Of a DNA stretch of 32,000 nt, positions 158-31,891 are shown one piece after another. Location of the stretch: assembly GCF_051307035.1 (NCBI RefSeq), contig NZ_CP195536.1:2160001-2192000 (forward strand), in the 5' to 3' direction. The position numbers and the translations under genes were made by a program. The notes below the pieces were generated by a model. It did no database searches and was not told the origin of the DNA. It was given only the letters and a program-made list of their open reading frames with translations. Positions within the stretch are counted from its first letter, which is position 1; the number at the start of each line of letters is the position of its first letter. This stretch comes from Psychrobacter sp. DM4. GTDB taxonomy: Bacteria > Pseudomonadota > Gammaproteobacteria > Pseudomonadales > Moraxellaceae.

Positions 158-215
158 AAGCAGCTTGCTATGTTGTAGTGATACTCCTCGCATACTCCGG
201 TTAAGAAGTCGCGCT

Positions 216-1907
216 ATGTCATTATCTCAAACCGCTAATATCGCCGCGCCCAAAACTAACAAAGAACGTCGCTACCTCGATACACTCTATCGTTTTGAGC
301 TGAATCCAAACGCTCTTATCATTATTGTCGCGCTATTTTTGGTTGTTACCGCTAATGTCAGCTTTTTTTCGCAAGTGCTAAGCATTTATCCTTTTAGCAC
401 CAATATTGGCTTTATAGTATCTATCACAGGACTATTATTTAGTCTGATGTGGCTACTCTTTCAGTTGTTATGCTACCGACCTACTACCAAGCCCGTACTC
501 ATCACCATGGTTATGATAGGCGCCGTATGTAGTTATTTCACTGATGCTTACGGTACCGTGTTCGATACTAATATGCTGATCAACAGTATGCAAACCGATC
601 AAGCAGAAGCCATGGGGTTGATGTCGCCAAGCTTCTTTATTCGGGTGTTTTTGCTGGGTGTTATACCCGCAATTATTATTGCCACATTGAATATCAAGCG
701 CGTACCTTTACGCCGAGCATTGTGGCAAAGAGCAGTTACTCTGATTTTAGCTATTGCTTTGATAGCGTTATGTTTACTACCCTTTGGGGATCAATATGCT
801 ACTTTTTTTCGTCAGCACAAAGTCGTCCGCAGTTATGCCAATCCTATCACCCCTATCTATTCTGTTATCAAACTAGGTACTGATTATGTTGAGGAGCTAC
901 GTCGACCTGATACTTTGACCCTACATGCAACCGATGCCAAACGTAGCGCCACTATCAGTGATAAAACAAAACCTAAACTCATGGTATTTGTGGTTGGTGA
1001 AACAGTTCGCGCCGATCATGTTGGTCTCAACGGCTATGAGCGCAACACTATGCCGCTTCTAGCAAGCCAATCAGATGTATACAGCTTTAAAAACGCCACC
1101 TCTTGCGGAACTTCTACTGCTTACTCCGTTCCTTGTATGTTCAGCTACGCTAATAGAGAACATTATGACAACAACACTTCAGACTATAATGAAAATGTCC
1201 TAGACACGCTACACAAGCAAGGCGTCAATGTGGTTTGGCGCGATAATAATTCAAGCGCCAAAGGGGTGGCAGATCGAGTTACCTTTGAGGACTACAAAAC
1301 GACAGATGTCAATCCAAATTGCGATGAGGAGTGTCGTGATATTGGGATGCTTGACGGTTTTGATAAGCTAGTTAGAGCAGACTCTCCTGCTAAAGACACG
1401 CTTATTTTATTACATCAGATGGGTAATCATGGTCCTGCTTATTACAAACGTTATCCAAAGGCGTTTGAGGAATACAAACCCGTCTGTATGACTAACGAGC
1501 TCTCTAAATGTGATGATCAGTCCGTCATCAACGCTTACGACAATGCTATCCGCTATACTGATTACTTCTTAAACAACGTGATTGATACGCTAAAAAAGTA
1601 TGAGTCCGATTATGATGTCGTAATGGTATACGTAAGCGACCATGGCGAGAGCTTGGGGGAGAACAATATCTACTTGCATGGGATGCCCTACGCTATAGCG
1701 CCCGATGCGCAAAAGCAGGTTCCCGTCATCGTTTGGTCGCCTACTGGCAACGGTATCAATACTAATAACAGAGATAAAGGTAGCCTTGCCAATATGATAA
1801 ATCAGCCTGTGTCACATGACTTTATTACCCCAACTTTACTGAAATTTTTTGGTATTACTACTGAAGAAGTAGCAGCAGCACCAACCTTTTTTGAATCTGT
1901 ATACTGA
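216..1907 (+). CDS. eptA: Lipid A phosphoethanolamine transferase (EptA/PmrC, MCR-like)
   Basis: About five N-terminal TM helices precede a sulfatase-type periplasmic domain. The motifs VVGETVRADH, TSCGTSTAYSVPCMFSY, HQMGNHGPAY and YVSDHGESLGEN match my recollection of the MCR-1/EptA catalytic-domain blocks. The ORF track starts at TTG 165. I prefer ATG 216 (MSLSQT...) because TTG 165 lies inside the predicted promoter. Confidence 0.9.
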   Translation: MSLSQTANIAAPKTNKERRYLDTLYRFELNPNALIIIVALFLVVTANVSFFSQVLSIYPFSTNIGFIVSITGLLFSLMWLLFQLLCYRPTTKPVLITMVMIGAVCSYFTDAYGTVFDTNMLINSMQTDQAEAMGLMSPSFFIRVFLLGVIPAIIIATLNIKRVPLRRALWQRAVTLILAIALIALCLLPFGDQYATFFRQHKVVRSYANPITPIYSVIKLGTDYVEELRRPDTLTLHATDAKRSATISDKTKPKLMVFVVGETVRADHVGLNGYERNTMPLLASQSDVYSFKNATSCGTSTAYSVPCMFSYANREHYDNNTSDYNENVLDTLHKQGVNVVWRDNNSSAKGVADRVTFEDYKTTDVNPNCDEECRDIGMLDGFDKLVRADSPAKDTLILLHQMGNHGPAYYKRYPKAFEEYKPVCMTNELSKCDDQSVINAYDNAIRYTDYFLNNVIDTLKKYESDYDVVMVYVSDHGESLGENNIYLHGMPYAIAPDAQKQVPVIVWSPTGNGINTNNRDKGSLANMINQPVSHDFITPTLLKFFGITTEEVAAAPTFFESVY

Positions 1908-1967
1908 GATTTTGAACCCAGACGCTACGACTATTCATGCACGAGACCCCTTATGCACAAGACCCCT

Positions 1968-2672
1968 ATGTACAAAATCCTTGTCATTGAAGATAATCCT
2001 GATATCGTCGCCAATATTTATGCTTTTTTTGAGCCCAAAGGTTTTGAGCTAGATAACGCTCATAATGGCATTAGCGGCCTGACGCTCGCCTCTAATAATC
2101 GTTATGACGTTATACTATTAGATGTGATGCTGCCGGGTATGAATGGCACCACTCTCTGTAAAAAGCTTCGAGAAGAATTACATGATAAAACACCCGTACT
2201 CATGCTAACGGCTCGCGATACGATTTTGGATAAAGTATCAGGTTTTGATAGTGGTGCTGATGATTATTTGGTCAAGCCTTTTTCACTGGTTGAGTTAGAA
2301 TCCCGTATCAAGGCGCTTATACGTCGACATCAAGACGAGCATTTTGAGCATAGTATAACGGTCGGTCAGTTATCCCTAAATGCTAATGAGCACACGATTA
2401 CTAGAGAAGGTAAATCACTAAAGCTTACGCCAACAGGGTTTAAAATACTGAATACACTAATGAGTGCGACACCTCGAGTCGTCAGCAAGCATGAGCTTGA
2501 GGAAAAAGTATGGGGTGAGGATATTCCAAGTAGCGACGCATTGCGGACTCATATGCATAGCGTACGTGTACAAGTCGATAAGCCATTTGCTAGGCCTATG
2601 ATAATGACCATATCAGGCGTCGGTTATCAAATTATCAACCCAGAGCACTCTGAGCTGCACGGCGATTTATGA
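1968..2672 (+). CDS. pmrA: OmpR/PhoB-family response regulator (PmrA/BasR-like)
   Basis: The receiver domain shows MYKILVIEDN...DVILLDVMLPGMNG...LMLTA...KPF, and the C terminus is a winged helix (LTPTGFKIL...GVGYQI). The gene sits between eptA and a histidine kinase, as in Acinetobacter pmrCAB. The ORF track start is 1953; ATG 1968 gives the usual M-x-ILVIED N terminus. The symbol is inferred from context and the PmrA-type boxes. Confidence 0.85.
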   Translation: MYKILVIEDNPDIVANIYAFFEPKGFELDNAHNGISGLTLASNNRYDVILLDVMLPGMNGTTLCKKLREELHDKTPVLMLTARDTILDKVSGFDSGADDYLVKPFSLVELESRIKALIRRHQDEHFEHSITVGQLSLNANEHTITREGKSLKLTPTGFKILNTLMSATPRVVSKHELEEKVWGEDIPSSDALRTHMHSVRVQVDKPFARPMIMTISGVGYQIINPEHSELHGDL

Positions 2673-2703
2673 CTGACTTTACCCCTTTAAATAAGTAAAT
2701 ACT

Positions 2704-4068
2704 ATGTTCAATCTAGACGCTATAGCCAATAAATTTCGGCTATCCTACTTCTTGTTTGCCATACTCATATGCGTCACTTTCGTCAGTATTTTTATGTATG
2801 CTGAGGTGCGTATGGAGCGAGAACTGGTCAAAGCTCGATTATTACAACAGCTTGAGCTTAGTCAAAAAGAAAACCTTGAACAGCCTATTTATAGCGCTGA
2901 ACCTGGTATCAATATTTATCGTTATGATAATGCACCTGGTAATCTACAATTGTTAGCGACTGAAACCGTGCAAGAGATGCCAGTGACCTTCACAACTCAG
3001 GAAGGCGATATCAAAACAGAGCTACATTTTTTTCGTTATCAAAAAGACAAGCAAAACTATATTTTGACGTATTTAGAAGATGACGAGATGGTGATGGAAA
3101 ATTATCCTGTTTTGGCCATTTTTGAGCATTTAGAAGATATATTTGCCGATGCGTTGAAAGCGGCTGTGCTGCTTAGTTTACTTATCGCCGCGGTATTCTC
3201 TCAGCTGTCCTCTAGGCAGATTACTAAGCCTTTATTAGACTTGAAACAAGCGGTTGAGACCGATCATCAAAATTTAACCGAGCTGACTCATCTGCCATCA
3301 GAGGTAGGAGTATTAGCACGCGCTATTGACGATAAAAACCATAAGCTTGAGCAATACCTAAAACGCGAGCAACTATTTACAGGAGATGTTAGTCACGAAT
3401 TACGTACGCCTCTGACGATTATCATGGGCGCATCTGAAGTACTAGCGTCACAATTAGAACATGATCCTCGTTTGAGCGAATTTGCCAATCGCATCAGTCA
3501 CACGGCGAAAGAAACCTCGGAGATTATCAGTGCTTTGCTTCTACTCTCGCGCGCGCCTGAAAAACTAGATACTCCGCAAACCTCTATCAATAGCATTGCT
3601 ATAAGTGAAGTTGCGCGTCTAAAGTATTTACTGCGTCATAAGCGTGTTACTTGTATCGTAGTGGCTGAGCAAGAATACAGCGTATGCGTGCGACCTGAAC
3701 TGCTAAAGATGGCTCTTGGCAACCTCATAAAAAATGCTTTTCAGTACACGGACGAGGGCGAAGTCGTTGTTTCTATAGACGCTAAAAAAATAGTCATCAC
3801 TGATACCGGACTTGGCATTCCTGAGGATATGATGCCACTACTCTACGAAAGGTTTGAGCGTTTAGATCATAAACGTACAGGCGAGCAAACTGATAATGTA
3901 GTGTCAGACAGCTATTCTAGCTATAAGGTAGAAGGCACAGGCTTGAAGGTAGAAGGCACAGGCTTGGGTCTGAGCATTGTGCAGCGCATTATGACTCACA
4001 TGGACTGGCAGCTCACTCATCAAGCCCACGCTTCAGGGGGTAGTACCTTTAGTATTTATTATAAATGA
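2704..4068 (+). CDS. pmrB: Sensor histidine kinase (PmrB/BasS-like)
   Basis: There are two TM segments (FLFAILICVTFVSIF and AVLLSLLIAAVF). Kinase boxes present are the H-box SHELRTPL, N-box LIKNAFQY, G1 DTGLGI and G2 GTGLGLSIV. The gene starts 31 bp after the response regulator. A 21-bp in-frame tandem duplication sits at the G2 box (see findings). Confidence 0.88.
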   Translation: MFNLDAIANKFRLSYFLFAILICVTFVSIFMYAEVRMERELVKARLLQQLELSQKENLEQPIYSAEPGINIYRYDNAPGNLQLLATETVQEMPVTFTTQEGDIKTELHFFRYQKDKQNYILTYLEDDEMVMENYPVLAIFEHLEDIFADALKAAVLLSLLIAAVFSQLSSRQITKPLLDLKQAVETDHQNLTELTHLPSEVGVLARAIDDKNHKLEQYLKREQLFTGDVSHELRTPLTIIMGASEVLASQLEHDPRLSEFANRISHTAKETSEIISALLLLSRAPEKLDTPQTSINSIAISEVARLKYLLRHKRVTCIVVAEQEYSVCVRPELLKMALGNLIKNAFQYTDEGEVVVSIDAKKIVITDTGLGIPEDMMPLLYERFERLDHKRTGEQTDNVVSDSYSSYKVEGTGLKVEGTGLGLSIVQRIMTHMDWQLTHQAHASGGSTFSIYYK

Positions 4069-4118
4069 TCACTTATCTTGTCACCTGTCGCCATCATTCT
4101 CACTATCATTCCAATCCT

Positions 4119-4135
4119 CTTAACGCTTTCTTAAT
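4119..4135 (+). promoter_or_regulatory. PmrA-box-like direct repeat (CTTAAC-N5-CTTAAT) upstream of dgkA-pap2
   Basis: The sequence is cttaac-gcttt-cttaat. A good -10, TATACT, lies at 4147-4152, 11 bp after the box. ATG 4189 is about 37 bp further on. The flank atcctcttaa is shared with the box at 5536. Confidence 0.6.
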
Positions 4136-4188
4136 GCGCCCTGCTCTATACTAAAAACCTATCATATATACGCTATGAAGTCATCTAT

Positions 4189-4662
4189 ATGGACACGACC
4201 AAAGCCGTCACTTGCAATATCAGATCAATAGACACCTACTCTGAAAATAAAAAACCATCTGACACTTTGGTTGTACTCGATAGCTATGCCAGTAGTGTCA
4301 AAGGTCAAAAAGGCCTTTCTCGTATCCTCAAAGCCACAGGTTATTCTATCGATGGGTTTAGAGCCGCTTATAAATTTGAGGCGGCTTTTAGACAGGTTTT
4401 GTGGCTCAATCTTGTATTGTTCATCGTTATTGTAACCATGCCTTTTGATATCAGCACAAGCATGATGCTGATAATTGTCTCTTTTTTGTCCCTTATTGTT
4501 GAGCTATTCAATACCGCTATTGAGGCTTGCGTCGATCACACTTCAACAGATCAACATCCCCTCGCTAAAATAGCCAAAGATGTCGGCTCTGCTGCGCAGT
4601 TTTTAGCATTGTTACTGCTATTTATTTTATGGCTACTCGCCTTGTCGCCCTTTTTATTCTAA
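4189..4662 (+). CDS. dgkA: Diacylglycerol kinase (DgkA family)
   Basis: The block GLSRILKATGYSIDGFRAAYKFEAAFRQ and the motifs ELFNTAIEACVD and KDVGSAA match the E. coli DgkA pattern, and three TM helices are present. Using ATG 4189 gives about 40 extra N-terminal residues relative to classical DgkA. An internal TTG (codon L of TLVVL, near 4267) is a possible alternative start. Confidence 0.85.
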   Translation: MDTTKAVTCNIRSIDTYSENKKPSDTLVVLDSYASSVKGQKGLSRILKATGYSIDGFRAAYKFEAAFRQVLWLNLVLFIVIVTMPFDISTSMMLIIVSFLSLIVELFNTAIEACVDHTSTDQHPLAKIAKDVGSAAQFLALLLLFILWLLALSPFLF

Positions 4663-4709
4663 ATCAGGTCCAAATAAATCGTGAGCTACTATATCTGAGG
4701 TAGGGTTTG

Positions 4710-5540
4710 ATGACTATAGAGCGTAATTTAAAAAGGTGTCATTCGACCAATTGGGTCTGGCTCAAACTACTATGCTTGACCATTATTGCAACCTTAGTCT
4801 CTGAGCATAGTCAATTCGACATTCGTATCAGTGAGTTTTTCTATAGCAATGGTCAGTGGCTGATACAAAAGGGCGCGCAGCCTTACGCCTTTATCTTTTA
4901 CGATGGCCCTAAAGCGTTATTAATCTTGTCAGCTCTCTATTTATTAGTCATATTAGTTATCAGATACAGACAACCTTCAAATACGACCGCTATCACTGGT
5001 AACCGTAAGTTTTATAAATTGATGACTCGTCTGTCGGCTCGTGAAATAAGTTACGTACTAAGTATGCTAGTCGTAGTACCTTCTACTATTGCGCTATTAA
5101 AAGGCGTAACTCATGTAAGCTGTCCCAATCATTTAATAGCTTTTGGCGGTGATTTGCCCTATCTCAGTCTATGGCAAAACATGGTCGCAAGCACGCCAGC
5201 CAAGTGCTTCCCAGCCGCTCATGCCAGCGCAAGTTTTTCTTTATATGGGTTAGCTTTTTTGCCTGCTCTTTATGAGTATCGTTATCGAATATTTGAGATA
5301 GTGACCGTCTTAGGTTGGACAATGGGGCTCTATAAAATGCTCTTTGGCGATCATTTCTTTAGTCATACTTTAGTCTCAATGCTGCTATCACTGACGATTG
5401 CGTGTACGCTGGCTGCTATATTTTTCAAGGACAAATCTACTCATAAAGCTCTAAATAAAACATTGAGCCGTACAAAACGCTATAAAACGTCCGCTTTAAT
5501 AAAAACAATGACGCTGTCCAAAACAGACTCATCCTCTTAA
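4710..5540 (+). CDS. PAP2-superfamily membrane phosphatase (lipid phosphatase-like)
   Basis: This is a polytopic membrane protein with PAP2-like blocks: LKGVTHVSCP (KX6-CP instead of KX6RP), FPAAHAS (the PSGH position) and GDHFFSHTLVS (the C3 position). The ORF track begins at TTG 4707, with ATG at 4710. The family call is moderately confident; whether it is catalytically competent is uncertain. Confidence 0.7.
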   Translation: MTIERNLKRCHSTNWVWLKLLCLTIIATLVSEHSQFDIRISEFFYSNGQWLIQKGAQPYAFIFYDGPKALLILSALYLLVILVIRYRQPSNTTAITGNRKFYKLMTRLSAREISYVLSMLVVVPSTIALLKGVTHVSCPNHLIAFGGDLPYLSLWQNMVASTPAKCFPAAHASASFSLYGLAFLPALYEYRYRIFEIVTVLGWTMGLYKMLFGDHFFSHTLVSMLLSLTIACTLAAIFFKDKSTHKALNKTLSRTKRYKTSALIKTMTLSKTDSSS

Positions 5541-5552
5541 TACTTTCTTAAC
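5536..5552 (+). promoter_or_regulatory. PmrA-box-like direct repeat (CTTAAT-N5-CTTAAC) overlapping the pap2 stop codon
   Basis: The sequence is cttaat-acttt-cttaac, and the TAA stop of pap2 (5538-5540) lies inside the first hexamer. A further in-phase CTTAAA occurs at 5580-5585 (+33 bp). With the geometry seen at the other two boxes, the -10 position (5564-5569, TTACCT) is poor, so promoter function is uncertain. Confidence 0.45.
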
Positions 5553-5739
5553 GGCTTACAGACTTACCTCAAAATTCGCCTTAAAAGATAAGTGTGTTTT
5601 TGCCAAAAAAATACACTAAGCCATTGAAAAACAATGTATAAATAGACAATAATTAGTTGAAGCAGCTAGAAAATAGCTATCGTGTCAGCTCAAGTCATCA
5701 AGGATGAGTGACTCGTTTTGTGAGTTTGATAAGGATATT

Positions 5740-7140
5740 ATGAAGCCTCTTTTTATAATGATGTCAGCGCTGGTTGTCGGTTTGGTGTCCCATGCTGCGA
5801 TAGCAGACAGCATAAGTGTCCAAAAGACATTGCCCCCCAGAATAAGCCTACCCAACGTTAGCCCGATTAATAGCGATCTGGCTAATCGCGGTGCTTATGT
5901 GGCGCGGACTGCTGATTGCATGGCATGTCACCGTGAGAACTATAGCGGCGGCGTCCCTATTGAGACGCCTATTGGCAATATCTATTCAACCAATATTACC
6001 CCGTCCAAGATTTATGGTATCGGTAACTATACCGAAGCTGATCTGGCAAAAGCATTGCGTAAAGGTCGTGCCCCTAACCATCAAATTTATCCCGCCATGC
6101 CCTATCCCTCTTATCATGGTATGACCGATGCGGATATCAGTGCGCTGTTTGCTTACTTTCAAACTGTGCCGCCAGTAGAAAAAGCACCTGACAAAACCAC
6201 CAACTTACCTTTCCCGTTAAATATACGCAGTCTGATGCTGGCGTGGAATGTCATCAATGTGCCCTCCACCGAGAACCGCGTAGGTCTGACGCCTGTAGAG
6301 CAGCGCGGCGAATATCTAGTCAATAATTTAGAGCATTGCGGCACTTGTCATACCCCGCGCAACCTCACTCAAGGACTGGATAAAGATCGCTACCTCTCTG
6401 GCGCGCCGCTCGGTAAATGGTTTGCGCCCAACATCACCCCTGATAACGATACGGGCATTGGGCGCTGGAGCAAGGGTGATATCATCACCTATCTGCGTAC
6501 AGGCAAGCTCGATCAACGAGCCTATGCAGGCGGTCCGATGGCAGAAGCCGTCGCTCATAGCACCCGTTATCTCACTGATGACGATCTGATAGCGATGGCG
6601 AATTATCTAAAAGTCATCCCTGCTATCAAGACCGATAACTATCTAATACCTGTCAACATTGCGCGTTTGCCTACTCCAGTCAGCGACTCTATTACTTATG
6701 ATTTGTTAGAACAAAAAGACTATCTGGCCCAAGTGAAATCTAAGACGACTCCTGCTGCTAGTACTACTAGTAGCAATAGGAGTAAAAGCGCTAGTAACAG
6801 CAGCAATAGTAATAGTAGCAATTCGCCAAAGGGCTTATATCTGACTCATTGTGCTAGCTGCCACGGCGTCGATGGCTATGCTCAGCCTGATGCACGCTAT
6901 GCCGCTATCGTCGGTCTAAGTAGCATTCGCCGCGCCAAACCTGATGCGCTGATTGGCGTTATCGCCTTTGGAGCAAAAGGCGCGTTCAATACCGCACCCA
7001 AAATGCCAGGATTCAAAGAAGATTTGAGCTATGCGCAGATGGCAAGTATTACTAATTATGTACGCGTCACTTTTGGCGGTTTGCCAAGTAGTGATGTCAG
7101 TGCGGCTAAGGTCAAACGCGTCATTAAAGATAAAAGCTAA
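5740..7140 (+). CDS. Triheme cytochrome c subunit of the membrane-bound dehydrogenase type (AdhB / gluconate-2-DH cytochrome-like)
   Basis: Three CXXCH motifs are present (CMACH, CGTCH, CASCH). The blocks PIGNIYSTNITP and YPAMPYPSY are typical of AdhB-type cytochrome subunits. The signal peptide is MKPLFIMMSALVVGLVSHAAIA. ATG 5740 has an AAGGA Shine-Dalgarno 5 nt upstream, whereas the ORF-track start 5704 has none at usable spacing. Confidence 0.85.
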   Translation: MKPLFIMMSALVVGLVSHAAIADSISVQKTLPPRISLPNVSPINSDLANRGAYVARTADCMACHRENYSGGVPIETPIGNIYSTNITPSKIYGIGNYTEADLAKALRKGRAPNHQIYPAMPYPSYHGMTDADISALFAYFQTVPPVEKAPDKTTNLPFPLNIRSLMLAWNVINVPSTENRVGLTPVEQRGEYLVNNLEHCGTCHTPRNLTQGLDKDRYLSGAPLGKWFAPNITPDNDTGIGRWSKGDIITYLRTGKLDQRAYAGGPMAEAVAHSTRYLTDDDLIAMANYLKVIPAIKTDNYLIPVNIARLPTPVSDSITYDLLEQKDYLAQVKSKTTPAASTTSSNRSKSASNSSNSNSSNSPKGLYLTHCASCHGVDGYAQPDARYAAIVGLSSIRRAKPDALIGVIAFGAKGAFNTAPKMPGFKEDLSYAQMASITNYVRVTFGGLPSSDVSAAKVKRVIKDKS

Positions 7141-7205
7141 GTCATTAACCCTAACAACAAAACTACTCGACCATCATAAATACTGAGCACGATAAGGATA
7201 ATGAG

Positions 7206-8822
7206 ATGAATGATTTGCTGCCCTCTGCTACGCGCAGGCAACTGCTCGCTATGATAGGCAAGACTGCGGGCGCGGCGGCTATGTATCAGGCGATGACGAC
7301 TTTAGGTTTCGCCTCAGAGTCCAGTTTTAAACAAGGGATGAATCTAAAAGGCGCGCCTGCTGGGGCGAGCATTGTTATCCTCGGCGCAGGTTTGGCAGGT
7401 CTTACAGCGGCGTATGAGCTACGCAAAGCGGGGTATAAAGTCACCGTTCTTGAATACCAAAACCGCGGTGGCGGGCGCAGTTGGACGCTCAATAGCGGTG
7501 ATAAATATACTGAGCTTGGCGGCGAGCAAGTCACTTGCAACTTTCAAAAAGGCAACTACTTTAACGGTGGGCCGTGGCGACTGCCTATCCATCACTACGC
7601 CGTTTTTCATTATTGCAAAAAGTTCAATGTCGCTTTGCAACCCTTTATCCAAACCAATGATCGCGCTTATTTACATCGTACCAATCACTTTAATGGTGCG
7701 CCGCAGCGTTTGGGCGATGTACAAAACGATATTCGCGGTTATGTCTCAGAGCTATTATCCAAAGCGGTGAACAAAGGCAGCTTAGATGATGCGGTCACTA
7801 CAGAGGACAAAGAAAAGCTACTCGTCGGGCTCAAAGGCTGGGGCGTACTCGACAATAATTATCGCTATGTCAAAAGCGCCGATACCAGCAAGCATCGCGG
7901 CTATAGCGTCTATCCTGGCGGCGGTTTGATGCCAGATGCGCAGCCATCGACGCCGATACCTAGAGACAAACTTCTCGATTCAGAGATGTGGGCTGATATT
8001 TATAATAATTACACGGTACACGTGCATCAGCCTGCGATGTTTCAGCCCGTAGGCGGTATGGGCAAAATCGGCGACGCCTTTACACGCGAGTGCCGCGATA
8101 TGATTACGTTCAATGCCAAAGTGACCAAGATTAATCAAGATGAGACAGGCGTGACTGTTGATTATGTGGATAGTACTAATTCTAGGAGCGACAATCCTGA
8201 AGGTATGGGCAAAAGCGTTCGCGCCGACTGGTGCATATGTACGATCCCACTGTCTATATTGACCCAAATTGACATCAATGTCTCAGAGCCAATGAAACAA
8301 GCGATGGCAGCGGTGCCTTATGACAGCTCCTATAAAGTCGGTTTGGAGTTTAAGCGGCGCTTTTGGGAGGAGGATGAATGGATATACGGCGGTATCACTT
8401 ACACCGACTTGCCGATAACCCAAATCTCCTACCCGTCGCAAGATCTGTTTAGTTCAGGATCTGGCGTGCTCCTTGGCGCTTACGGCTTTGGCGAGGCGTC
8501 TTATAAATTCAACTCCCTCACGCCAAAAGAGCGTATTAGCGCAGCGCTTGAATATGGTAAACGTATTCATCCGCAGTACAGCAAAGAGTTTCGCGCGGGC
8601 ACTTCAGTCGCATGGCACCGTATACCGTGGTCGCTTGGCTGCTATGGCATCTGGAGTGAATCAAGCCGCGAGCAATATTACGACACCTTATGCGCTATTG
8701 ATCACCGCATTGTATTGGCAGGCGAGCACTGCTCACACATTCCTGCTTGGCAAGAAGGCGCGATACTATCAGGGATGGATTCGGCAAACCGCTTACATCA
8801 AAAGGCAAAAAAACTCGGTTGA
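7206..8822 (+). CDS. Tat-exported flavin amine-oxidase-fold protein (MAO/L-amino-acid-oxidase family), substrate unknown
   Basis: The N terminus has a twin-arginine motif (SATRRQLLAMIGKTAGAAAMYQA). An FAD dinucleotide-binding fold is present (IVILGAGLAGLTAAYELRKAGYKVTVLEYQNRGGGRSWT), and the C terminus has a LAGEH block typical of the amine oxidase family. AAGGA lies 7 nt upstream of the ATG. Confidence 0.85.
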   Translation: MNDLLPSATRRQLLAMIGKTAGAAAMYQAMTTLGFASESSFKQGMNLKGAPAGASIVILGAGLAGLTAAYELRKAGYKVTVLEYQNRGGGRSWTLNSGDKYTELGGEQVTCNFQKGNYFNGGPWRLPIHHYAVFHYCKKFNVALQPFIQTNDRAYLHRTNHFNGAPQRLGDVQNDIRGYVSELLSKAVNKGSLDDAVTTEDKEKLLVGLKGWGVLDNNYRYVKSADTSKHRGYSVYPGGGLMPDAQPSTPIPRDKLLDSEMWADIYNNYTVHVHQPAMFQPVGGMGKIGDAFTRECRDMITFNAKVTKINQDETGVTVDYVDSTNSRSDNPEGMGKSVRADWCICTIPLSILTQIDINVSEPMKQAMAAVPYDSSYKVGLEFKRRFWEEDEWIYGGITYTDLPITQISYPSQDLFSSGSGVLLGAYGFGEASYKFNSLTPKERISAALEYGKRIHPQYSKEFRAGTSVAWHRIPWSLGCYGIWSESSREQYYDTLCAIDHRIVLAGEHCSHIPAWQEGAILSGMDSANRLHQKAKKLG

Positions 8823-8868
8823 TCATGAAGTTATTAATTTTCGCTAAATAGCGACGCATATAAAGGCG

Positions 8869-9546
8869 ATGTTAGACATGACAAAAGCAAAAACTACTCG
8901 GATAAACTTGCATAAACCCTATCGTTTGCCAATCCTATTGATAATGGGTGGCAGCGCTTTTTTATCAGCGTGTAGCCAATACCACAAACAAAGTGCCCCT
9001 ACTCTTGCCAGTTTACAAACGCCGATGGTTTCTAACAACAATTTTAGCAATCAAGACAGCCGCAACAACGGTGCGTGGGGCGCAGTTTATATGTCCAAAG
9101 ACGAGCTGACCCGCCCGCCTATGAATATCGTCGATGTCAGCTCAATTCCTAAGATGAGCAATGATGCTAGTTTACAAAAATGGCTCGCCAAATTTGAAGG
9201 CAGTGCACAAGGTAAAAAGGGATTTTTTACCACGAACGGCAAAAAGCTCTATGATGATTCTTGCGCCGGCTGTCATATGGTAGATGGCAAAGGTGCACAA
9301 GGCGCAGGCTACTATCCGCCGCTTGCCAATAACAGTAAGATGGAATCAAAATATTATATTATCAGTGTGGTCATCAACGGTTTGCGCGGCATGCCCGCCT
9401 TTCATAGCATGATGGATGATGAGCAAATAGCCGCAGTGACGCAGTATGTGCACAGCGAATTAAACCCTTATACCGATACAGTGAGCGCTGACAATGTCGC
9501 CCAGCTGCGCCATGAGTTTCCGCCAGGGTCTGATCCGAGTGAGTAG
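8869..9546 (+). CDS. Monoheme c-type cytochrome lipoprotein
   Basis: The lipobox is FLSAC. There is a single CAGCH heme motif, with a downstream GLRGMPAF methionine-ligand region. The gene starts 47 bp after the flavoprotein gene on the same strand. ATG 8878 is an alternative start. Confidence 0.8.
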   Translation: MLDMTKAKTTRINLHKPYRLPILLIMGGSAFLSACSQYHKQSAPTLASLQTPMVSNNNFSNQDSRNNGAWGAVYMSKDELTRPPMNIVDVSSIPKMSNDASLQKWLAKFEGSAQGKKGFFTTNGKKLYDDSCAGCHMVDGKGAQGAGYYPPLANNSKMESKYYIISVVINGLRGMPAFHSMMDDEQIAAVTQYVHSELNPYTDTVSADNVAQLRHEFPPGSDPSE

Positions 9547-9661: not shown

Positions 9662-10300
9662 ATGATGATGACACCCTATAACCGTAACTTATCTATTAAG
9701 CCTAATCAGTGGCTTAGATCGCTTGTTTTATTAGCTGCTATATCGACGTTATTGGCTTGTAGCGAGCCTGATGTAAATGCTAGTGACACAACATCAGCTA
9801 CTAAGCCGCCTGTCGTCACACAACCAGCGCAAACAGAACAACCAAAAACTCAGATGACATCTGTCAGTGCTCACTCAGAGACTCAATCAAGCATTTTGCA
9901 AAACGTCTCGGCGACCGTATACAAGGATGCCAATTGTGGCTACTGTAAAGAGTGGATCAGTCATATCGAAGATAATGGTTTAAACGCCACTGCTCATGAT
10001 GTTGAAGAGATGTCTTTATTCAAAGATCGTTATAGCGTTCCTCAGCAAATGCGCTCTTGTCATACTGCGGTTACCACCGACGGCTATGTGTTTGAAGGTC
10101 ATGTTCCTGCTAAATATATGGCACAGTTTTTGGCCAAGCCGCCAAGTGATGCGATTGGACTTGCCGTACCCGGTATGCCAGTGGGTAGCCCCGGTATGGA
10201 ATATCAAGATAAGTTTACGCCGTACCAAGTAATGCAGCTGAATAAAGACGGTACATTAGAGGTCTATGCTGATATTAAATCATCACATGAGCAACTGTGA
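9662..10300 (+). CDS. DUF411 (CopG-like) metal-binding lipoprotein
   Basis: The lipobox is LLAC, followed by a Thr/Pro/Gln-rich linker. The DUF411 signature blocks are VYKDANCGYCKEW, SCHTAV, GYVFEGHVPA and LAVPGMPVGSPGME. Confidence 0.8.
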   Translation: MMMTPYNRNLSIKPNQWLRSLVLLAAISTLLACSEPDVNASDTTSATKPPVVTQPAQTEQPKTQMTSVSAHSETQSSILQNVSATVYKDANCGYCKEWISHIEDNGLNATAHDVEEMSLFKDRYSVPQQMRSCHTAVTTDGYVFEGHVPAKYMAQFLAKPPSDAIGLAVPGMPVGSPGMEYQDKFTPYQVMQLNKDGTLEVYADIKSSHEQL

Positions 10301-10457: not shown

Positions 10458-10901
10458 TCAACGCTTAAAGCGTCTGATACCACTTGCCACTACGCCAAAC
10501 AGCTCAAGCGAGCCCTTAACTTCAATGTCAGTATAATCATCATTGAGCGAGCGCAAAATGATCGTCTCCCCTAATATCAATTGCTTGGCAGCAAAACCGT
10601 CATCGACTAATGCAATTACGATGTCTTTATTACTCGCCGTCAACGACCTGTCCACCACCAAAATATCGTTGGGATAGATACCAATATCTATCATGCTATC
10701 GCCTTCTACTTCGACGAGATACGTCGTTGCTGGATGGCGAATGAGCAAGGTATTAAGATCAATACGATTTTGCACGTAGTCGGTTGCAGGACTTGGAAAC
10801 CCTGCTTTGACTCTATCGCTGTATAAGGACAAAAGGACAGGTTTGCCCTCATCCGTCAGTTTGCCTATTATTTTTACCGTCATAGTTGCGCCTGTTCTCA
10901 C
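10458..10901 (-). CDS. umuD: UmuD-like S24 peptidase subunit of DNA polymerase V
   Basis: VKAGFPSPATDY aligns with E. coli UmuD VQCGFPSPAADY, giving an Ala-Gly cleavage site. GDSM carries the catalytic Ser, and the catalytic Lys region is FAAKQL. GTG 10901 and ATG 10883 (MTVKII...) are both possible starts. Confidence 0.9.
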   Translation of the reverse strand: MRTGATMTVKIIGKLTDEGKPVLLSLYSDRVKAGFPSPATDYVQNRIDLNTLLIRHPATTYLVEVEGDSMIDIGIYPNDILVVDRSLTASNKDIVIALVDDGFAAKQLILGETIILRSLNDDYTDIEVKGSLELFGVVASGIRRFKR

Positions 10902-10925
10902 TTCGAAAGAATTAACCTTAATAGG

Positions 10926-12227
10926 CTAGTGTACCTTTGGTAGCTGATTGATATTAGTAGTGTAGCAAGGCGATAGCATCTCGCGACTCATCTGCCACGT
11001 TTGTTTGTCCTTGATGCCTTCGCTCGCGATAAAGACCGCTCCTTGATTATGACGGTTCTGTCCGTACTTTTTATTGAGCTCGTCCATGAGTGCGCTGATC
11101 TCCTCACTTTGAGTTGAAGTCTGCTTATCTTTTGAATCATCATTAGCGAATAAATCTAGCTGCACCTCATCATGCTGGCATAAGTCCAGTAGCATGACGC
11201 CAGCCTTAGCATAGCGAACGTTTTCTTTATAAATGATTTTGAGCACTTGCCGCGCGGCCAATATCATTACCCGAGTATCCGCCGTCGGTGTCACAAATTG
11301 GTATTGACCCGATATCGCCGTATAAGTTTCTGACTGATTAAAGGGACTATTCATAGAAAATATACTGAGATAATGACAAACGCTATTTTGTTGACGTAGT
11401 TTGTTCGCAGCGTTTGCCACATGACTACAGATCGACTCGCTGAGCTCATTAGGGCAAGTAACACGGCGCGAAAAAGAGCGTGAAGAGATAATTTGCTTTT
11501 TGGGCTCTACGCTCTCAATGCCGATACAAGACTGCCCGTTCAGCTCCAAGCAGGTGCGCTCTAATACTACGCCGAAGTGCTGACGAATCTTGCCAGGCTC
11601 ACAAACCGCCAATTGATGAACGGTATGAATACCCAGAGCATTTAACCTCAACTTGTAGCGCCGACCGACACCCCATAGCTCGCCCACATCCGTAATTTGC
11701 ATCAAACGGCGTATCCACCTCAGACTCTCAAGCACGCAGATGCCATGAGTCGCAGGGTATTTTTTTGCCGCCTGATTGGCAAGTTTTGCCATAGTTTTGG
11801 TGCTACCGATACCGACGCTGACCGCGATACCGGTATGGCTCTCTATAATCATTTTGAGCTTGCCAGCGTAAGCCTTTAGGTCTTGCATGGCGACGGGATA
11901 ATCCGCCAAATACAAGAACGCTTCATCGATAGAATACACCTCAACCGTCGGACACAACGTCTCTATCGTCGTCATGACCCGCTGCGACATATCAGCATAA
12001 AGCGTATAGTTGGAGCTAAAAACCGTAATGTTGTTTGCGGTACAAAAGTCTTTTACCTGAAAATAGGGTACTGCCATTTTGATACCCAGACGCTTTGCTT
12101 CAGAGGAGCGCGCCACCACGCAGCCATCATTATTCGATAAGACAACGACGGGCTTATCCTTTAAATCAGGACGAAATAGCTTCTCACAGTTGGCATAAAA
12201 GCTGTTGCAATCGACGAGCGCATACAT
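10926..12227 (-). CDS. umuC: UmuC, Y-family DNA polymerase V catalytic subunit
   Basis: The N terminus MYALVDCNSFYANCEKLFRPDLKDKPVVVLSNNDGCVVARS and the YSIDEAF and GIGSTKTMAKLAN blocks are canonical for UmuC/MucB-type Y-family polymerases. Confidence 0.92.
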   Translation of the reverse strand: MYALVDCNSFYANCEKLFRPDLKDKPVVVLSNNDGCVVARSSEAKRLGIKMAVPYFQVKDFCTANNITVFSSNYTLYADMSQRVMTTIETLCPTVEVYSIDEAFLYLADYPVAMQDLKAYAGKLKMIIESHTGIAVSVGIGSTKTMAKLANQAAKKYPATHGICVLESLRWIRRLMQITDVGELWGVGRRYKLRLNALGIHTVHQLAVCEPGKIRQHFGVVLERTCLELNGQSCIGIESVEPKKQIISSRSFSRRVTCPNELSESICSHVANAANKLRQQNSVCHYLSIFSMNSPFNQSETYTAISGQYQFVTPTADTRVMILAARQVLKIIYKENVRYAKAGVMLLDLCQHDEVQLDLFANDDSKDKQTSTQSEEISALMDELNKKYGQNRHNQGAVFIASEGIKDKQTWQMSREMLSPCYTTNINQLPKVH

Positions 12228-26154: not shown

Positions 26155-26924
26155 AATGCTTCTTCCTTGAGGTATATGGAGTCGATATAGTTGATAAATG
26201 TCTATAGCCAGCAGTTTTAAACCAAAAAATAATGACGTCTTTATTACTCAAAATATTTTGCTTAAAAATACATATAGGCTGCAAATAAATTAATAGTCTG
26301 TAAGTGATTCTATTTGAATATAACAAAAAATCAACAACTTTATTCATATATCAATCAATTGTAATTTTTTATGTGTTTTTTTTAAATCTGGGTGAATAGC
26401 ATATATCCCTACTTAAGAGCAACTTAATAGATTCATAATAATTTTATGTATATATACTTAAACGAATATTAATATCTAATATTATAGATATAAGAATAAA
26501 TATATTTATTTTTTGATATATAACTTTTGACTTTATTTTTTACTACTATTACGACGCCCCTTTTAAGTAGCAGATGGTAATGCCTCTCACGCTGACTTTG
26601 CTAAGTTAATGGCGTCACTACCGTTGCTAGCGCAGTCCTAGGGTTCATCTGACATCAAGATAATACCGATATCTTTTATAACGACTTTTTAGGACATAAA
26701 TAAATAAGTCATATATCGTTTTATATTATTGATATATTCATTTTATTAAATATAGAGAGTAATAGAGAAGTTTTTTGAAGGCACAAGTAGCATTAGCCTT
26801 ATAGAATAAGACTAGGAAGGGAGATTAATTAGGAAGAGTGTTTTGGTCGCGGCGGAATAATAGAATTTTTAAACCAGCTTGTATCTGATAAATAAATGCC
26901 AAGCTATTGATGATTATAGAATAA
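26155..26924 (-). promoter_or_regulatory. 770-bp extremely AT-rich upstream region of the TAA gene
   Basis: No credible ORF is present. By my count 26401-26520 has 18 G+C in 120 nt. The region contains many A/T tracts (T8 at 26376-26383) and AT palindromes. It must contain the TAA promoter, but I could not pin down -35/-10 elements. Confidence 0.6.
26412..26428 (+). promoter_or_regulatory. PmrA-box-like direct repeat (CTTAAG-N5-CTTAAT) in the TAA upstream region
   Basis: The sequence is cttaag-agcaa-cttaat. It has the same plus-strand orientation as the other three boxes, which is inverted relative to the TAA gene. It lies 258-274 bp upstream of the TAA ATG. A degenerate copy, cttaaa-cgaat-attaat, lies at 26457-26473. 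Confidence 0.35.
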
Positions 26925-31351: not shown

Positions 31352-31891
31352 CTATCCAAAATCTGCAGCAGGTTTATGCTCTGCGCCCTCTAGCACGTCA
31401 ACCGCATCGTTAGCGGGTTGCTCAACATTGTCATCGTCCTCGCTCGGAGTAGCTTTGTTTGCATCCGCGCGTAGGGTTGAGACATAAGCAATCACATCAG
31501 CGCGCTCCTTGCTATCTGGCATCGGATCAGCAAGCATTTTGGAGCCAGGCATCGCCTTTTCCGCATCAGCGATATAGGGATCTAAAGTGTCCGCATCCCA
31601 TATCCAGCCCGATACACTTAGCGCTTCACTATAATCATAATCTGATAGCTGCGCCGCCTTTGCACCATAAACATTCATAAGCTGCGGGCCTTTTTTGTTC
31701 AGACCTGGGGTCAGCTGATGGCACTGGGCGCAAGCGTCTTTGTATATCAGCGCACCTGCGACCGCGTCTCCTTTGGTATATAGCGGTAAAGTCACAGGTG
31801 CGCGCGAATCTGCAGGCGGCGTAGGCTCACAGCCGGCGAGTACTAACAGGGCAAGAATAGCCACGCCGAATTGGTGTATAGCAAAAGGCAT
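31352..31891 (-). CDS. Lipoprotein class I c-type cytochrome (cytochrome c2-like) with an acidic C-terminal tail
   Basis: The lipobox is LVLAGC and the heme motif is CAQCH. GPQLMNVYG and MPGSKM (the Met ligand) follow the mitochondrial/c2-type pattern. The C-terminal tail is rich in D/E. Confidence 0.82.
   Translation of the reverse strand: MPFAIHQFGVAILALLVLAGCEPTPPADSRAPVTLPLYTKGDAVAGALIYKDACAQCHQLTPGLNKKGPQLMNVYGAKAAQLSDYDYSEALSVSGWIWDADTLDPYIADAEKAMPGSKMLADPMPDSKERADVIAYVSTLRADANKATPSEDDDNVEQPANDAVDVLEGAEHKPAADFG

Follow-up and report, generated by a model that had tools for sequence, protein, structure and literature searches.

We favor, with moderate confidence, a reading in which three consecutive genes of Psychrobacter sp. 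DM4 make up a single operon encoding a periplasmic L-amino-acid dehydrogenase system. They lie within the 32,000-nt stretch of contig NZ_CP195536.1 that we analyzed (the window) and constitute a Psychrobacter-type, operon-like trio on the plus strand, encoding in order a triheme cytochrome c, a flavoprotein, and a monoheme cytochrome c. The flavoprotein is probably a periplasmic dehydrogenase whose electron acceptors are c-type cytochromes and not O2. The principle is known from cytochrome-c-dependent dehydrogenases (NicA2, Pnao, and those of Akram et al. 2025); the three-gene form is not described.

Gene layout and the three encoded proteins

An ORF check bore out the three genes at the positions given by the first-pass annotation, all on the plus strand, and the HMM searches that it had proposed matched Amino_oxidase, Cytochrom_C, and Cytochrome_CBB3 in the respective proteins (Table 1). 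The intergenic gaps measure 65 nt (triheme–flavoprotein) and 46 nt (flavoprotein–monoheme), and no terminator-like hairpin was found in either. The promoter-like site upstream of the trio is weak evidence, because the region holds no more of them than shuffled sequence would be expected to. Genes flanking the trio are unrelated to it, with lipid A modification genes upstream and DUF411 and umuDC downstream. Signal-peptide assignments for all three proteins derive from motifs and motif conservation.

Table 1. Features of the trio locus, in window positions
Feature	Position	Strand	Basis
Promoter-like site, TTGAAA, 18 nt, AATAAT; upstream of trio	5624..5653	+	10/12 consensus matches
Triheme cytochrome c, FdhC/AdhB type, 466 aa, without C-terminal membrane helix	5740..7140	+	CxxCH motifs, PDB matches
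Putative Sec-type signal peptide, triheme cytochrome (MKPLFIMMSALVVGLVSHAAIA, then DS)	5740..5805	+	read from sequence
Heme-binding motif 1, triheme cytochrome (CMACH, residue 60)	5917..5931	+	sequence motif
Heme-binding motif 2, triheme cytochrome (CGTCH, residue 200)	6337..6351	+	sequence motif
Ser/Asn-rich low-complexity linker ahead of third heme domain, triheme cytochrome	6736..6834	+	sequence
Heme-binding motif 3, triheme cytochrome (CASCH, residue 371)	6850..6864	+	sequence motif
Tat-signal FAD flavoprotein, L-amino-acid oxidase homologue, 538 aa; proposed L-amino acid:cytochrome c dehydrogenase	7206..8822	+	Pfam, PDB, Foldseek
Twin-arginine signal peptide, flavoprotein (TRRQLL ... GFA, then SE)	7206..7313	+	RR at 7233-7238; motif and conservation
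FAD-binding GxGxxG, flavoprotein (GAGLAG)	7383..7400	+	NAD_binding_8 and DAO N-terminal matches
Monoheme class-I cytochrome c lipoprotein, 225 aa; would take electrons directly from flavoprotein	8869..9546	+	Pfam, motifs, synteny
Lipobox L-S-A-C, residues 32-35, monoheme cytochrome	8962..8973	+	Cys35 predicted lipidated residue; Ser at +2
Heme-binding motif, monoheme cytochrome (CAGCH, residue 132; single)	9262..9276	+	sequence motif

The longest open reading frame of the triheme gene begins at 5704; we place the start at ATG 5740 on account of the ribosome-binding site AAGGA 5 nt upstream and a 466-aa entry in the protein collection (P0121) that is identical to the window protein and has the same start. 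Psychrobacter orthologues have an N-terminus similar in kind to its putative Sec signal. Pfam Cytochrom_C matches the protein at 7e-23, and its best PDB match is the triheme subunit of fructose dehydrogenase (7w2j_C, 3e-79), with further matches to those of alcohol dehydrogenase (8gy2_B, 2e-77) and FAD-glucose dehydrogenase (8hdd_B, 2e-70). This homology upholds the AdhB type first assigned to it, with the correction that the C-terminal membrane helix is missing: the window protein stops at about residue 438 of FdhC's 486. Its Ser/Asn-rich linker is weakly matched to FdhC and unmatched to AdhB and GDH-beta. The orthologue at locus L008 aligns with FdhC from residue 20 to residue 484 of 486, a span that takes in the hydrophobic helix and basic tail at the C-terminus, and an FdhC-like transmembrane helix is retained in 16 of the 24 loci that have all three genes. 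The helix appears to have been lost in the window's subclade; other Psychrobacter orthologues retain it.

[quoted passage not shown] With a mean pLDDT of 67.5, the AF2 model is of mediocre quality; its best Foldseek match is 2jb1/2jae (~1e-40, target-normalized TM-score 0.83), and ranks 1-42 consist entirely of L-amino-acid, L-glutamate, or L-lysine oxidases. NicA2 is absent from the top 60 PDB sequence matches and the top 50 Foldseek matches. The N-terminus reads SATRRQLLAMIGKTAGAAAMYQAMTTLGFA followed by SE, and the twin-arginine signal noted in the first pass proved to be conserved, with R10, R11, L13, and L14 invariant across 14 diverse relatives. A pattern search finds the motif in 78 of 84 related loci; inspection of protein sequences adds four with RR or KR, and the remaining two are undecided. 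G60, G62, and G65 are likewise invariant in the 14-relative alignment.

The monoheme protein matches Pfam Cytochrome_CBB3 (2e-15), and its orthologues conserve C-x-x-C-H-M and a downstream G-M-P (candidate Met ligand). Its lipobox comes after an N-terminal stretch that is basic and hydrophobic. All Psychrobacter orthologues with a readable N-terminus have an L-[SLTA]-G-C-S lipobox, including those of lineages whose triheme protein retains its helix. Among orthologues of other genera none was found, except that the pattern scan flagged a VSAC match within the signal peptide of L036 (Pseudomonas fragi). The lipid anchor first proposed for this cytochrome is thus predicted only in Psychrobacter loci, the window included, and does not hold for the family as a whole. 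By the E. coli rule, Ser at +2 would direct the lipoprotein to the outer membrane, a rule that may not hold in Moraxellaceae.

Neighborhood conservation and the choice of electron acceptor

The 84 related loci come from alpha-, beta-, and gammaproteobacteria and one Campylobacteraceae MAG, and in every one of them the flavoprotein gene is directly followed by a monoheme cytochrome c gene. In 24 of them (Psychrobacter, Rhodobacteraceae, and Azoarcus) the triheme gene immediately precedes the flavoprotein gene, and these 24 are monophyletic in a midpoint-rooted neighbor-joining tree of the 84 loci; in two Rhodobacteraceae loci the triheme stop overlaps the flavoprotein start by 4 nt. This survey, suggested in the first pass, found trio order and strand kept across three proteobacterial classes, with flanks that otherwise differ. 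One trio locus adjoins COX1 and COX2 genes. A secreted RidA-like gene follows the cytochrome gene at 26 of the 84 loci; RidA is an imine deaminase family, and its presence fits an imino-acid product.

In the FAO superfamily, no published feature predicts dehydrogenase function better than a cytochrome c gene next door (PMC12224317). For Tat-signal FAOs with such a gene, Akram et al. 2025 report a slow reaction with O2 against a kox(CytC) between 1e4 and 1e6 per M per s; they also report that oxidase versus dehydrogenase behavior is not readable from sequence, and that clade 1 enzymes, which have membrane-bound diheme partners, are sluggish with those cytochromes in solution (PMC12224317). The first-pass annotation had proposed a dehydrogenase by analogy with NicA2. 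Comparative support for this is strong (84/84 adjacency, the conserved Tat motif, and the adjacency predictor), and the analogy has since been generalized to more than 100 candidate FAO/cytochrome c enzymes that combine a Tat signal with a neighboring cytochrome c gene, and representatives of these were confirmed kinetically (PMC12224317).

That the flavoprotein is instead a true periplasmic or secreted H2O2-forming LAAO, its cytochromes serving another role such as peroxide handling, or an unrelated one, seems unlikely to us. Its nearest characterized homologue, R. opacus LAAO, is an oxidase with a Tat signal of its own (PMC5053998), and K377 is the conserved flavin-N5 Lys tied to O2 activation in a superfamily where oxidase function has re-evolved repeatedly inside dehydrogenase clades. 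However, the same Lys is found in proven dehydrogenases, and neither cytochrome resembles cytochrome c peroxidase, their PDB matches being electron carriers and dehydrogenase subunits. The invariable adjacency, with gene overlap in some loci, and the loss of the pathway in Gluconacetobacter diazotrophicus cytochrome c maturation mutants also argue against an oxidase. A gene order that is merely coincidental, with three products lacking a joint function, is already disfavored and would be very surprising: the unrelated flanking genes are compatible with it, but order and strand persist in 24 loci of three classes amid otherwise different flanks.

Substrate class and closest known systems

The first-pass annotation held that the substrate could not be deduced from the sequence. 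Its class can nevertheless be inferred, as LAAO homology and the conserved carboxylate-binding Arg and Tyr and flavin-N5 Lys make L-α-amino acids the most likely substrates. By manual motif matching, R125, K377, Y426, and A514-W515 correspond to Arg90, Lys326, Tyr372, and Gly464-Trp465 of snake-venom LAAO, where the Arg, Tyr, Lys, and Gly-Trp bind substrate and the flavin-N5 water (PMC7052187). The R. opacus LAAO alignment contains the same motifs, which recur in 74 to 84 of the 84 relatives. We rejected a generic amine oxidase identity, given the closeness to LAAO and the conserved Arg/Tyr. It is correspondingly improbable that the substrate is another amine (a D- or β-amino acid, polyamine, or alkaloid) and the enzyme a NicA2- or Pnao-like amine dehydrogenase. 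Databases do label the protein 'flavin monoamine oxidase family protein', and most FAO dehydrogenases have no known substrate; the carboxylate-binding residues, the run of L-amino-acid, L-glutamate, and L-lysine oxidases to structural rank 42 with NicA2 outside the top 50, the RidA association in 26 loci, and the genetics that tie the G. diazotrophicus enzyme to Trp oxidation all speak against it.

Searches aimed at the trio found no published description of the three-gene composition, in line with the first-pass view of it as uncharacterized, whereas its two-gene core is known as the lao-cccA(-ridA) cluster, which in G. diazotrophicus PAL5 is GDI2456-2454 (Rodrigues et al. 2016, PMC5053998). 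There, Tn5 insertions in lao abolish conversion of Trp to indole-3-pyruvate and IAA, ccm (cytochrome c maturation) mutants lose ~95% of IAA, and the cytochrome was proposed to act in LAAO redox turnover (PMC5053998); the evidence for this pairing is genetic only. Both systems have a Tat-signal LAAO homologue followed by a cytochrome c gene, and the lao-cytochrome-ridA order occurs in 26 of our 84 loci. The window differs in lacking ridA, in its upstream FdhC-type triheme gene, and in having a predicted lipoprotein as monoheme cytochrome. Orthology of the flavoprotein with GDI2456 is suggested solely by two peptides encoded by the lao primers, YPSHGYF and VIHPNY, whose matches at residues 409-415 and 454-458 lie almost in register.

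With NicA2/Pnao-CycN the window system shares an Amino_oxidase-fold FAD enzyme, a Tat signal, an adjacent class-I cytochrome c gene, and, as proposed here, two-step one-electron reoxidation of FADH2 by a periplasmic cytochrome c, but its enzyme belongs to another superfamily branch, near the L-amino-acid oxidases, and differs in substrate class. The survey of Akram et al. was seeded with NicA2 and does not mention L-amino-acid oxidases or triheme partners (PMC12224317). R. opacus LAAO (2JAE, 2JB1) is the best sequence and fold match and conserves the substrate-binding Arg and Tyr and also the Lys, yet it is a broad-specificity H2O2-forming oxidase with only about 34-40% identity to the flavoprotein. 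The triheme protein is homologous (E 1e-70 to 1e-90) to the corresponding subunits of fructose dehydrogenase FdhSCL, FAD-glucose dehydrogenase, gluconate 2-dehydrogenase, sorbitol dehydrogenase, and PQQ alcohol dehydrogenase (subunit II). This likeness extends to the C-terminal membrane helix in most trio loci, though not in the window, and the trio's heme count of four equals that of alcohol dehydrogenase (1 + 3). Unlike these membrane-bound dehydrogenases, whose catalytic subunits are of the GMC or PQQ families, the trio has an Amino_oxidase-family catalytic subunit that bears the Tat signal itself, without a small Tat-signal 'hitch-hiker' subunit, and a separate monoheme cytochrome in place of their Fe-S cluster or fused heme domain.

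Proposed electron route

In the mechanism we propose, Tat would export the flavoprotein folded and FAD-loaded, and in the periplasm it would oxidize L-amino acids to 2-imino acids, hydrolysis of which would yield 2-oxo acids and ammonium. The monoheme cytochrome would reoxidize FADH2 in two one-electron steps, as in NicA2/CycN, with little or no H2O2 formed. More speculatively, it may relay single electrons to the triheme cytochrome, a part taken in alcohol dehydrogenase by the heme c domain of subunit I and in fructose dehydrogenase by the Fe-S cluster, and the triheme cytochrome may pass them to the membrane chain at ubiquinone. Electrons could run from FAD through the monoheme to the triheme cytochrome, or from FAD to the triheme cytochrome and out by way of the monoheme one. 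That the triheme protein reduces quinone is a more speculative step, suggested purely by homology with FdhC/AdhB, and the case is weaker for the window genome because its copy lacks the membrane helix. Equally speculative is that the monoheme lipid anchor is the sole membrane tether of the complex in the window's lineage, since the triheme protein there appears to have lost its own helix. That Psychrobacter monoheme proteins are predicted lipoproteins even where the triheme helix is kept suggests that helix loss was tolerated given a second tether, which would fit a physical complex.

A less probable but still plausible alternative keeps the dehydrogenase and makes the triheme protein a periplasmic or membrane-associated wire or store rather than a quinone reductase, handing electrons on at the level of cytochrome c to, for instance, a cbb3- or aa3-type oxidase. 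This would suit the absence from the window protein of the membrane helix of FdhC and GDH-beta, the COX1 and COX2 genes beside one trio locus, and the two-gene loci, which work with the monoheme cytochrome alone and so imply ancestral entry at the cytochrome c level. It sits less well with the FdhC-like helix of 16 of the 24 trio loci and with the fact that all characterized FdhC/AdhB family members serve, to our knowledge, as membrane-side subunits of dehydrogenases feeding the ubiquinone pool.

Returning to the periplasmic L-amino-acid dehydrogenase system that we favor, the encoding of an LAAO relative between a triheme and a monoheme cytochrome suggests that electrons from amino acids would probably go to the respiratory chain rather than to H2O2.

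Gene content of the cluster and its flanks

The first-pass annotation had described a Tat-exported flavoprotein with an amine-oxidase fold, encoded between a triheme and a monoheme cytochrome c. This description proved accurate, with coordinates confirmed and Pfam matches far beyond chance. The three genes (hereafter the trio) share one strand and are separated by 65 nt (triheme to flavoprotein) and 46 nt (flavoprotein to monoheme), with no terminator-like hairpin found in either gap. A promoter and terminator scan around the trio gave site counts at shuffle expectation and was uninformative. The start assigned earlier to the triheme gene, position 5740, is likewise borne out: AAGGA lies 5 nt upstream of this ATG, and the coordinates match an identical protein-collection entry. 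The alternative ATG at 5704 was rejected because an AGGA abuts it with zero spacer.

The triheme product starts with a Sec-type signal, and its three CxxCH motifs lie at residues 60, 200 and 371. In the PDB it is matched best by the triheme subunits of fructose dehydrogenase (7w2j_C, 3e-79), PQQ alcohol dehydrogenase (8gy2_B, 2e-77) and FAD-glucose dehydrogenase (8hdd_B, 2e-70). Judged by these matches, it is a homologue of FdhC and AdhB, the corresponding subunits of fructose dehydrogenase (FDH) and PQQ alcohol dehydrogenase. The monoheme protein consists of a basic and hydrophobic N-terminus, a lipobox (LSAC, with Ser at position +2), an extension of ~80 residues and a class-I cytochrome c domain. 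None of the three proteins has a family-level match in NCBIfam, where only sub-threshold matches to the N-terminal FAD motif and to generic cytochrome c were returned.

Features of the window and their positions
Feature	Position	Strand	Remarks
Lipid A modification module	165-5540	+	Polymyxin-resistance type; next five rows
EptA/MCR-like phosphoethanolamine transferase	165-1907	+	
OmpR-type response regulator	1953-2672	+	
Sensor kinase	2704-4068	+	
DgkA	4189-4662	+	
PAP2 lipid A phosphatase	4707-5540	+	NCBIfam PAP2_lipid_A 1e-106; second match PAP2_near_MCR1
Triheme cytochrome c gene	5740-7140	+	466 aa; identical to entry P0121 (100%)
Flavoprotein gene	7206-8822	+	Pfam Amino_oxidase 5e-57 over residues 63-530, nearly full length
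Monoheme cytochrome c gene	8869-9546	+	225 aa; single class-I cytochrome c domain, CAGCH at residue 132
DUF411 protein	9662-10300	+	Lipoprotein-like N-terminus (LLAC); CGYC motif
umuD-like and umuC-like pair	10458-12227	-	S24 peptidase-like (10458-10901) and Y-family polymerase-like (10926-12227); from translations only
Adhesin-like protein	15715-26154	-	3479 aa; trimeric-autotransporter type, from sequence only
Low-GC stretch	26001-27000		Sharp GC fall to 0.31
TgpA-like transglutaminase gene	26925-29135		
Second monoheme cytochrome c	31352-31891	-	Lipobox LAGC; Pfam Cytochrom_C 1e-8

The lipid A modification module lies directly upstream of the trio, and a pap2 gene is also found upstream of the trio in four related loci (L001-L003, L016). 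The DUF411 gene just 3′ of the trio was rejected as an operon member because no homologue lies beside the trio in any other locus. Farther downstream, the adhesin-like protein includes a 222-aa (666-nt) unit, of which a script counted at least nine perfect copies in tandem; TRF reported no tandem repeat in this gene, the 666-nt period being above its 500-nt limit. GC content is ~0.55 in the adhesin gene, compared with 0.42-0.50 in its surroundings. The low-GC stretch between the adhesin and transglutaminase genes is a possible promoter or regulatory region for the adhesin.

Conservation of the neighbourhood and membrane anchoring

The first-pass annotation had proposed a survey of the gene neighbourhood. 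A scan of one genome per species yielded at least 594 loci with relatives of the flavoprotein. The best 80 of these, three loci from the contig index and the window make up the 84 loci compared here, a sample skewed to relatives sharing 53% identity or more. In 84/84 loci, the flavoprotein gene is immediately followed, on the same strand, by a homologue of the monoheme cytochrome c gene. Of the 84, 24 have the triheme gene immediately upstream of the flavoprotein gene: the window, all 16 of the other Psychrobacter loci, one locus from an Azoarcus MAG, and six that are either unassigned or from Rhodobacteraceae. The end of the triheme gene and the start of the flavoprotein gene overlap by 4 nt in two of the Rhodobacteraceae loci. 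A midpoint-rooted neighbour-joining tree of the flavoprotein puts the 24 trio loci in a single clade, with the 60 two-gene loci, which lack the triheme gene, as its sister group. More distant flanking genes vary among taxa. The conservation of this neighbourhood indicates that the trio is a conserved unit and that the flavoprotein-monoheme pair is older and far more widespread.

A gene for a secreted RidA-like protein follows the cytochrome gene in 26 of the 84 loci, all of them two-gene loci, and never accompanies the triheme gene. Presence was scored by tblastn with the RidA-like neighbour gene of one such locus (L022) as query, which matched nothing in the window or the other trio loci. Two trio loci have anecdotal neighbours: in Marivita sp. 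(L081, 1465-3068), tatA/B/C genes lie <3 kb upstream, a link to export, and on a metagenome contig (L082, 1226-3626), fragmented genes for COX1 and COX2 are found upstream in the opposite orientation, a link to a terminal oxidase.

The trio loci differ in how the triheme protein ends. A hydrophobic C-terminal helix followed by an Arg-rich tail is present in 16 of 24; the P. glacincola orthologue (L008), for example, aligns to residues 20-484 of the 486 of FdhC (7w2j_C), including the helix and an RRKKR tail. Aligned to FdhC, the window protein stops at about residue 438, ~45 residues earlier than the helix-bearing form, and the top 19-residue hydropathy within its last 100 residues is 0.9, versus 2.1-3.5 in the 16 helix-keeping loci. 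The window shares the helix-less form with seven closely related Psychrobacter loci (L001-L005, L014, L016), with the helix-bearing form found elsewhere in the genus (L006-L013, L015), and the gap to the flavoprotein gene is shorter in the helix-less form. Because eight independent assemblies agree, the loss of the helix is real. The AdhB-type assignment made from the sequence thus stands as regards homology, but the window copy is without the C-terminal membrane helix of FdhC and AdhB.

Similarly, the lipid anchor previously assigned to the monoheme cytochrome is supported in the window by the LSAC lipobox but is not a family-wide trait. The protein is a lipoprotein in every Psychrobacter locus with a readable N-terminus and has an ordinary Sec signal in other genera, with the exception of a lipobox-like match (VSAC) in Pseudomonas fragi (L036). 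We infer that this lipid anchor is the sole tether of the trio proteins in the lineage of the window, an arrangement that makes sense if they form a complex. With the second lipobox-bearing cytochrome near the end of the window, lipid-anchored c-type cytochromes occur more than once in this genome.

Substrate class of the flavoprotein

The N-terminus of the flavoprotein (...SATRRQLLAMIGKTAGAAAMYQAMTTLGFA/SE) contains a motif-based Tat signal, in which TRRQLL is followed by a hydrophobic region and then GFA/SE. An N-terminal FAD-binding motif is also recognized (NAD_binding_8, 4e-10). The arginine pair is invariant in an alignment of 14 relatives. Across the 84 loci, a twin arginine was found by pattern in 78, and RR or KR by inspection or protein alignment in four more, with two unresolved.

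[quoted passage not shown] An AF2 model built from the 14-sequence alignment was of moderate quality (pLDDT 67.5) and was used solely for fold search. With this model, Foldseek placed 2jb1/2jae first (2jb1_A, 2.4e-40, target-normalised TM-score 0.83), and the next 40 ranks are taken up entirely by oxidases of L-amino acids, L-glutamate or L-lysine. NicA2 is missing from both the best 60 PDB sequence matches and the best 50 Foldseek matches.

For comparison with LAAOs, we considered the Arg and Tyr that bind the substrate carboxylate, the triad of Lys, water and flavin N5, and the backbone contact that x-Trp makes with the amino group. The Arg and Tyr matched in the R. opacus enzyme correspond to its Arg84 and Tyr371; a literature search on these two residues found nothing, and roles were drawn from the snake-venom LAAO literature. 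In the venom enzyme, Arg90, Tyr372 and Gly464 hold the substrate and Lys326 holds the flavin-N5 water (PMC7052187). By our motif matching, R125 (in GPWRLP), Y426, K377 and A514-W515 of the flavoprotein correspond to Arg90, Tyr372, Lys326 and Gly464-Trp465. R125, K377, Y426 and W515 are invariant in the 14-sequence alignment (55-79% identity), and the substrate and flavin-N5 motifs were found again in 74 to 84 of the 84 loci. Given the LAAO homology and the conserved carboxylate-binding residues, the substrate class is most probably L-alpha-amino acids. The earlier statement that the substrate cannot be deduced from the sequence was therefore too pessimistic.

Electron acceptor and relation to known systems

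Flavoproteins of the flavin amine oxidoreductase (FAO) superfamily that use cytochrome c have been described before. Akram et al. 2025 list >100 candidate FAO enzymes that combine a Tat signal with a neighbouring cytochrome c gene; many tested representatives are dehydrogenases, with kox(CytC) of 1e4 to 1e6 per M per s and a slow reaction with O2, and adjacency to cytochrome c predicted dehydrogenase function better than did the Tat signal (PMC12224317). They seeded their set, in which dehydrogenase clades 1-3 are distinguished, with NicA2; L-amino-acid oxidases and triheme partners do not feature in the text, and none of the genera in our 84-locus comparison is named in the paper or its supplement (PMC12224317). 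The flavoprotein of the window resembles these dehydrogenases in its FAO fold and N-terminal FAD motif, its Tat motif and the cytochrome c gene immediately downstream; it resembles the R. opacus and snake-venom LAAOs in full-length homology, fold and retained substrate and flavin-N5 residues. The trio also includes a triheme subunit homologous to FdhC/AdhB, like the FDH, GADH, SLDH and FAD-GDH complexes. Unlike these complexes, its sole flavoprotein belongs to the Amino_oxidase family, with a GMC domain absent from the scanned genes around the trio; there is no small Tat-signal subunit (no extra ORF lies within 5541-9546), the Tat signal being on the catalytic subunit; and the window triheme cytochrome has no C-terminal membrane helix.

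The closest genetic precedent is the lao-cccA-ridA cluster of G. diazotrophicus, in which GDI2456 (lao) encodes a Tat-LAAO adjoining cccA and ridA (PMC5053998). Tn5 insertions in lao abolish the conversion of Trp to indole-3-pyruvate and IAA, earlier ccm mutants had lost ~95% of their IAA, and the cytochrome was proposed to act in redox turnover of the LAAO (Rodrigues et al. 2016, PMC5053998). The qPCR primers of that study translate to YPSHGYF and VIHPNY, matching residues 409-415 and 454-458 of the window flavoprotein in nearly the same register, so that GDI2456 very probably belongs to the same family. Both clusters have a Tat-LAAO-type gene followed by a cytochrome c gene, but the window lacks ridA. 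This was the single genetic report on the two-gene core that we found; our literature search returned no paper on the trio, on a triheme partner or on the biochemistry of the core. The novelty claimed in the first-pass annotation is accordingly narrowed: the three-gene architecture is undescribed in the literature searched, but lao-cccA-ridA (PMC5053998) and the FAO dehydrogenases (PMC12224317) are prior art. The principle of a cytochrome c-dependent dehydrogenase is already established, and the three-component architecture is new. By its sequence relationships, the trio is probably a cytochrome-c-dependent FAO dehydrogenase of the LAAO branch to which an FdhC-type triheme module has been added.

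A mechanism can be proposed from what the sequence and its comparison provide, namely the identity of the trio's parts, their export signals, the conserved substrate-binding residues and the conserved gene linkage. The FAD-loaded flavoprotein would leave the cytoplasm by Tat and, in the periplasm, oxidize L-amino acids to imino acids, and the monoheme cytochrome would take its electrons in two one-electron steps. More speculatively, the monoheme cytochrome would feed the triheme protein, which would then reduce ubiquinone. The two-electron cofactor of alcohol dehydrogenase is separated from the triheme subunit by one heme c domain, and an Fe-S cluster takes that position in FDH and FAD-GDH; the separate monoheme cytochrome could conceivably fill this role, giving 1 + 3 hemes as in alcohol dehydrogenase. 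An ‘L-amino acid:quinone oxidoreductase’ of this kind would be an LAAO-family enzyme and its cognate cytochrome c joined to an FdhC/AdhB membrane module.

Several other readings bear on this proposal. That the genes are adjacent by chance is excluded by the conservation of gene order. The conserved Arg and Tyr and the family's association with RidA make a substrate other than an amino acid unlikely. The flavoprotein could instead be a true H2O2-forming oxidase, as is its nearest characterised enzyme, but this would leave the universal cytochrome partner unexplained; from the conserved cytochrome partners, we predict that O2 is not the acceptor and H2O2 not the product. The periplasmic-dehydrogenase mechanism of the first-pass annotation is largely supported, through the 84/84 cytochrome adjacency, the conserved Tat motif and the published adjacency rule. 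It is also plausible, especially in the window, that the trio cytochromes form a cytochrome-level wire without quinone reduction; the quinone step is the weakest link of the proposal for the anchorless triheme copy there. We offer only tentatively, as a possibility we consider rather less than even, the full reading in which the trio is a four-heme periplasmic flavocytochrome complex passing electrons from L-amino acids to ubiquinone, and the much larger two-gene family, annotated as ‘monoamine oxidase’ at more than 590 genome loci, consists of L-amino acid:cytochrome c oxidoreductases rather than oxidases.

If this full reading is true, the trio would represent an unrecognised class of membrane-bound respiratory dehydrogenase, and its triheme variant would be the first case found of an FdhC/AdhB module with a catalytic subunit that is neither GMC- nor PQQ-type. 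Direct-electron-transfer biosensors are built on FdhC-type complexes, so that an amino-acid-specific analogue would be of practical interest. The occurrence of anchored and anchorless triheme orthologues in one genus offers a natural contrast for the function of the membrane helix. More broadly, a large and widespread proteobacterial gene group, currently given names such as ‘flavin monoamine oxidase’, ‘tryptophan 2-monooxygenase’ or ‘L-amino-acid oxidase’, would comprise respiratory L-amino-acid dehydrogenases; the likely reassignment of this large ‘oxidase’-annotated family is new and would bear on bacterial auxin synthesis via indole-3-pyruvate. Energy would be conserved from periplasmic amino-acid oxidation without H2O2, which would matter for organisms such as Psychrobacter that live largely on amino acids and organic acids.
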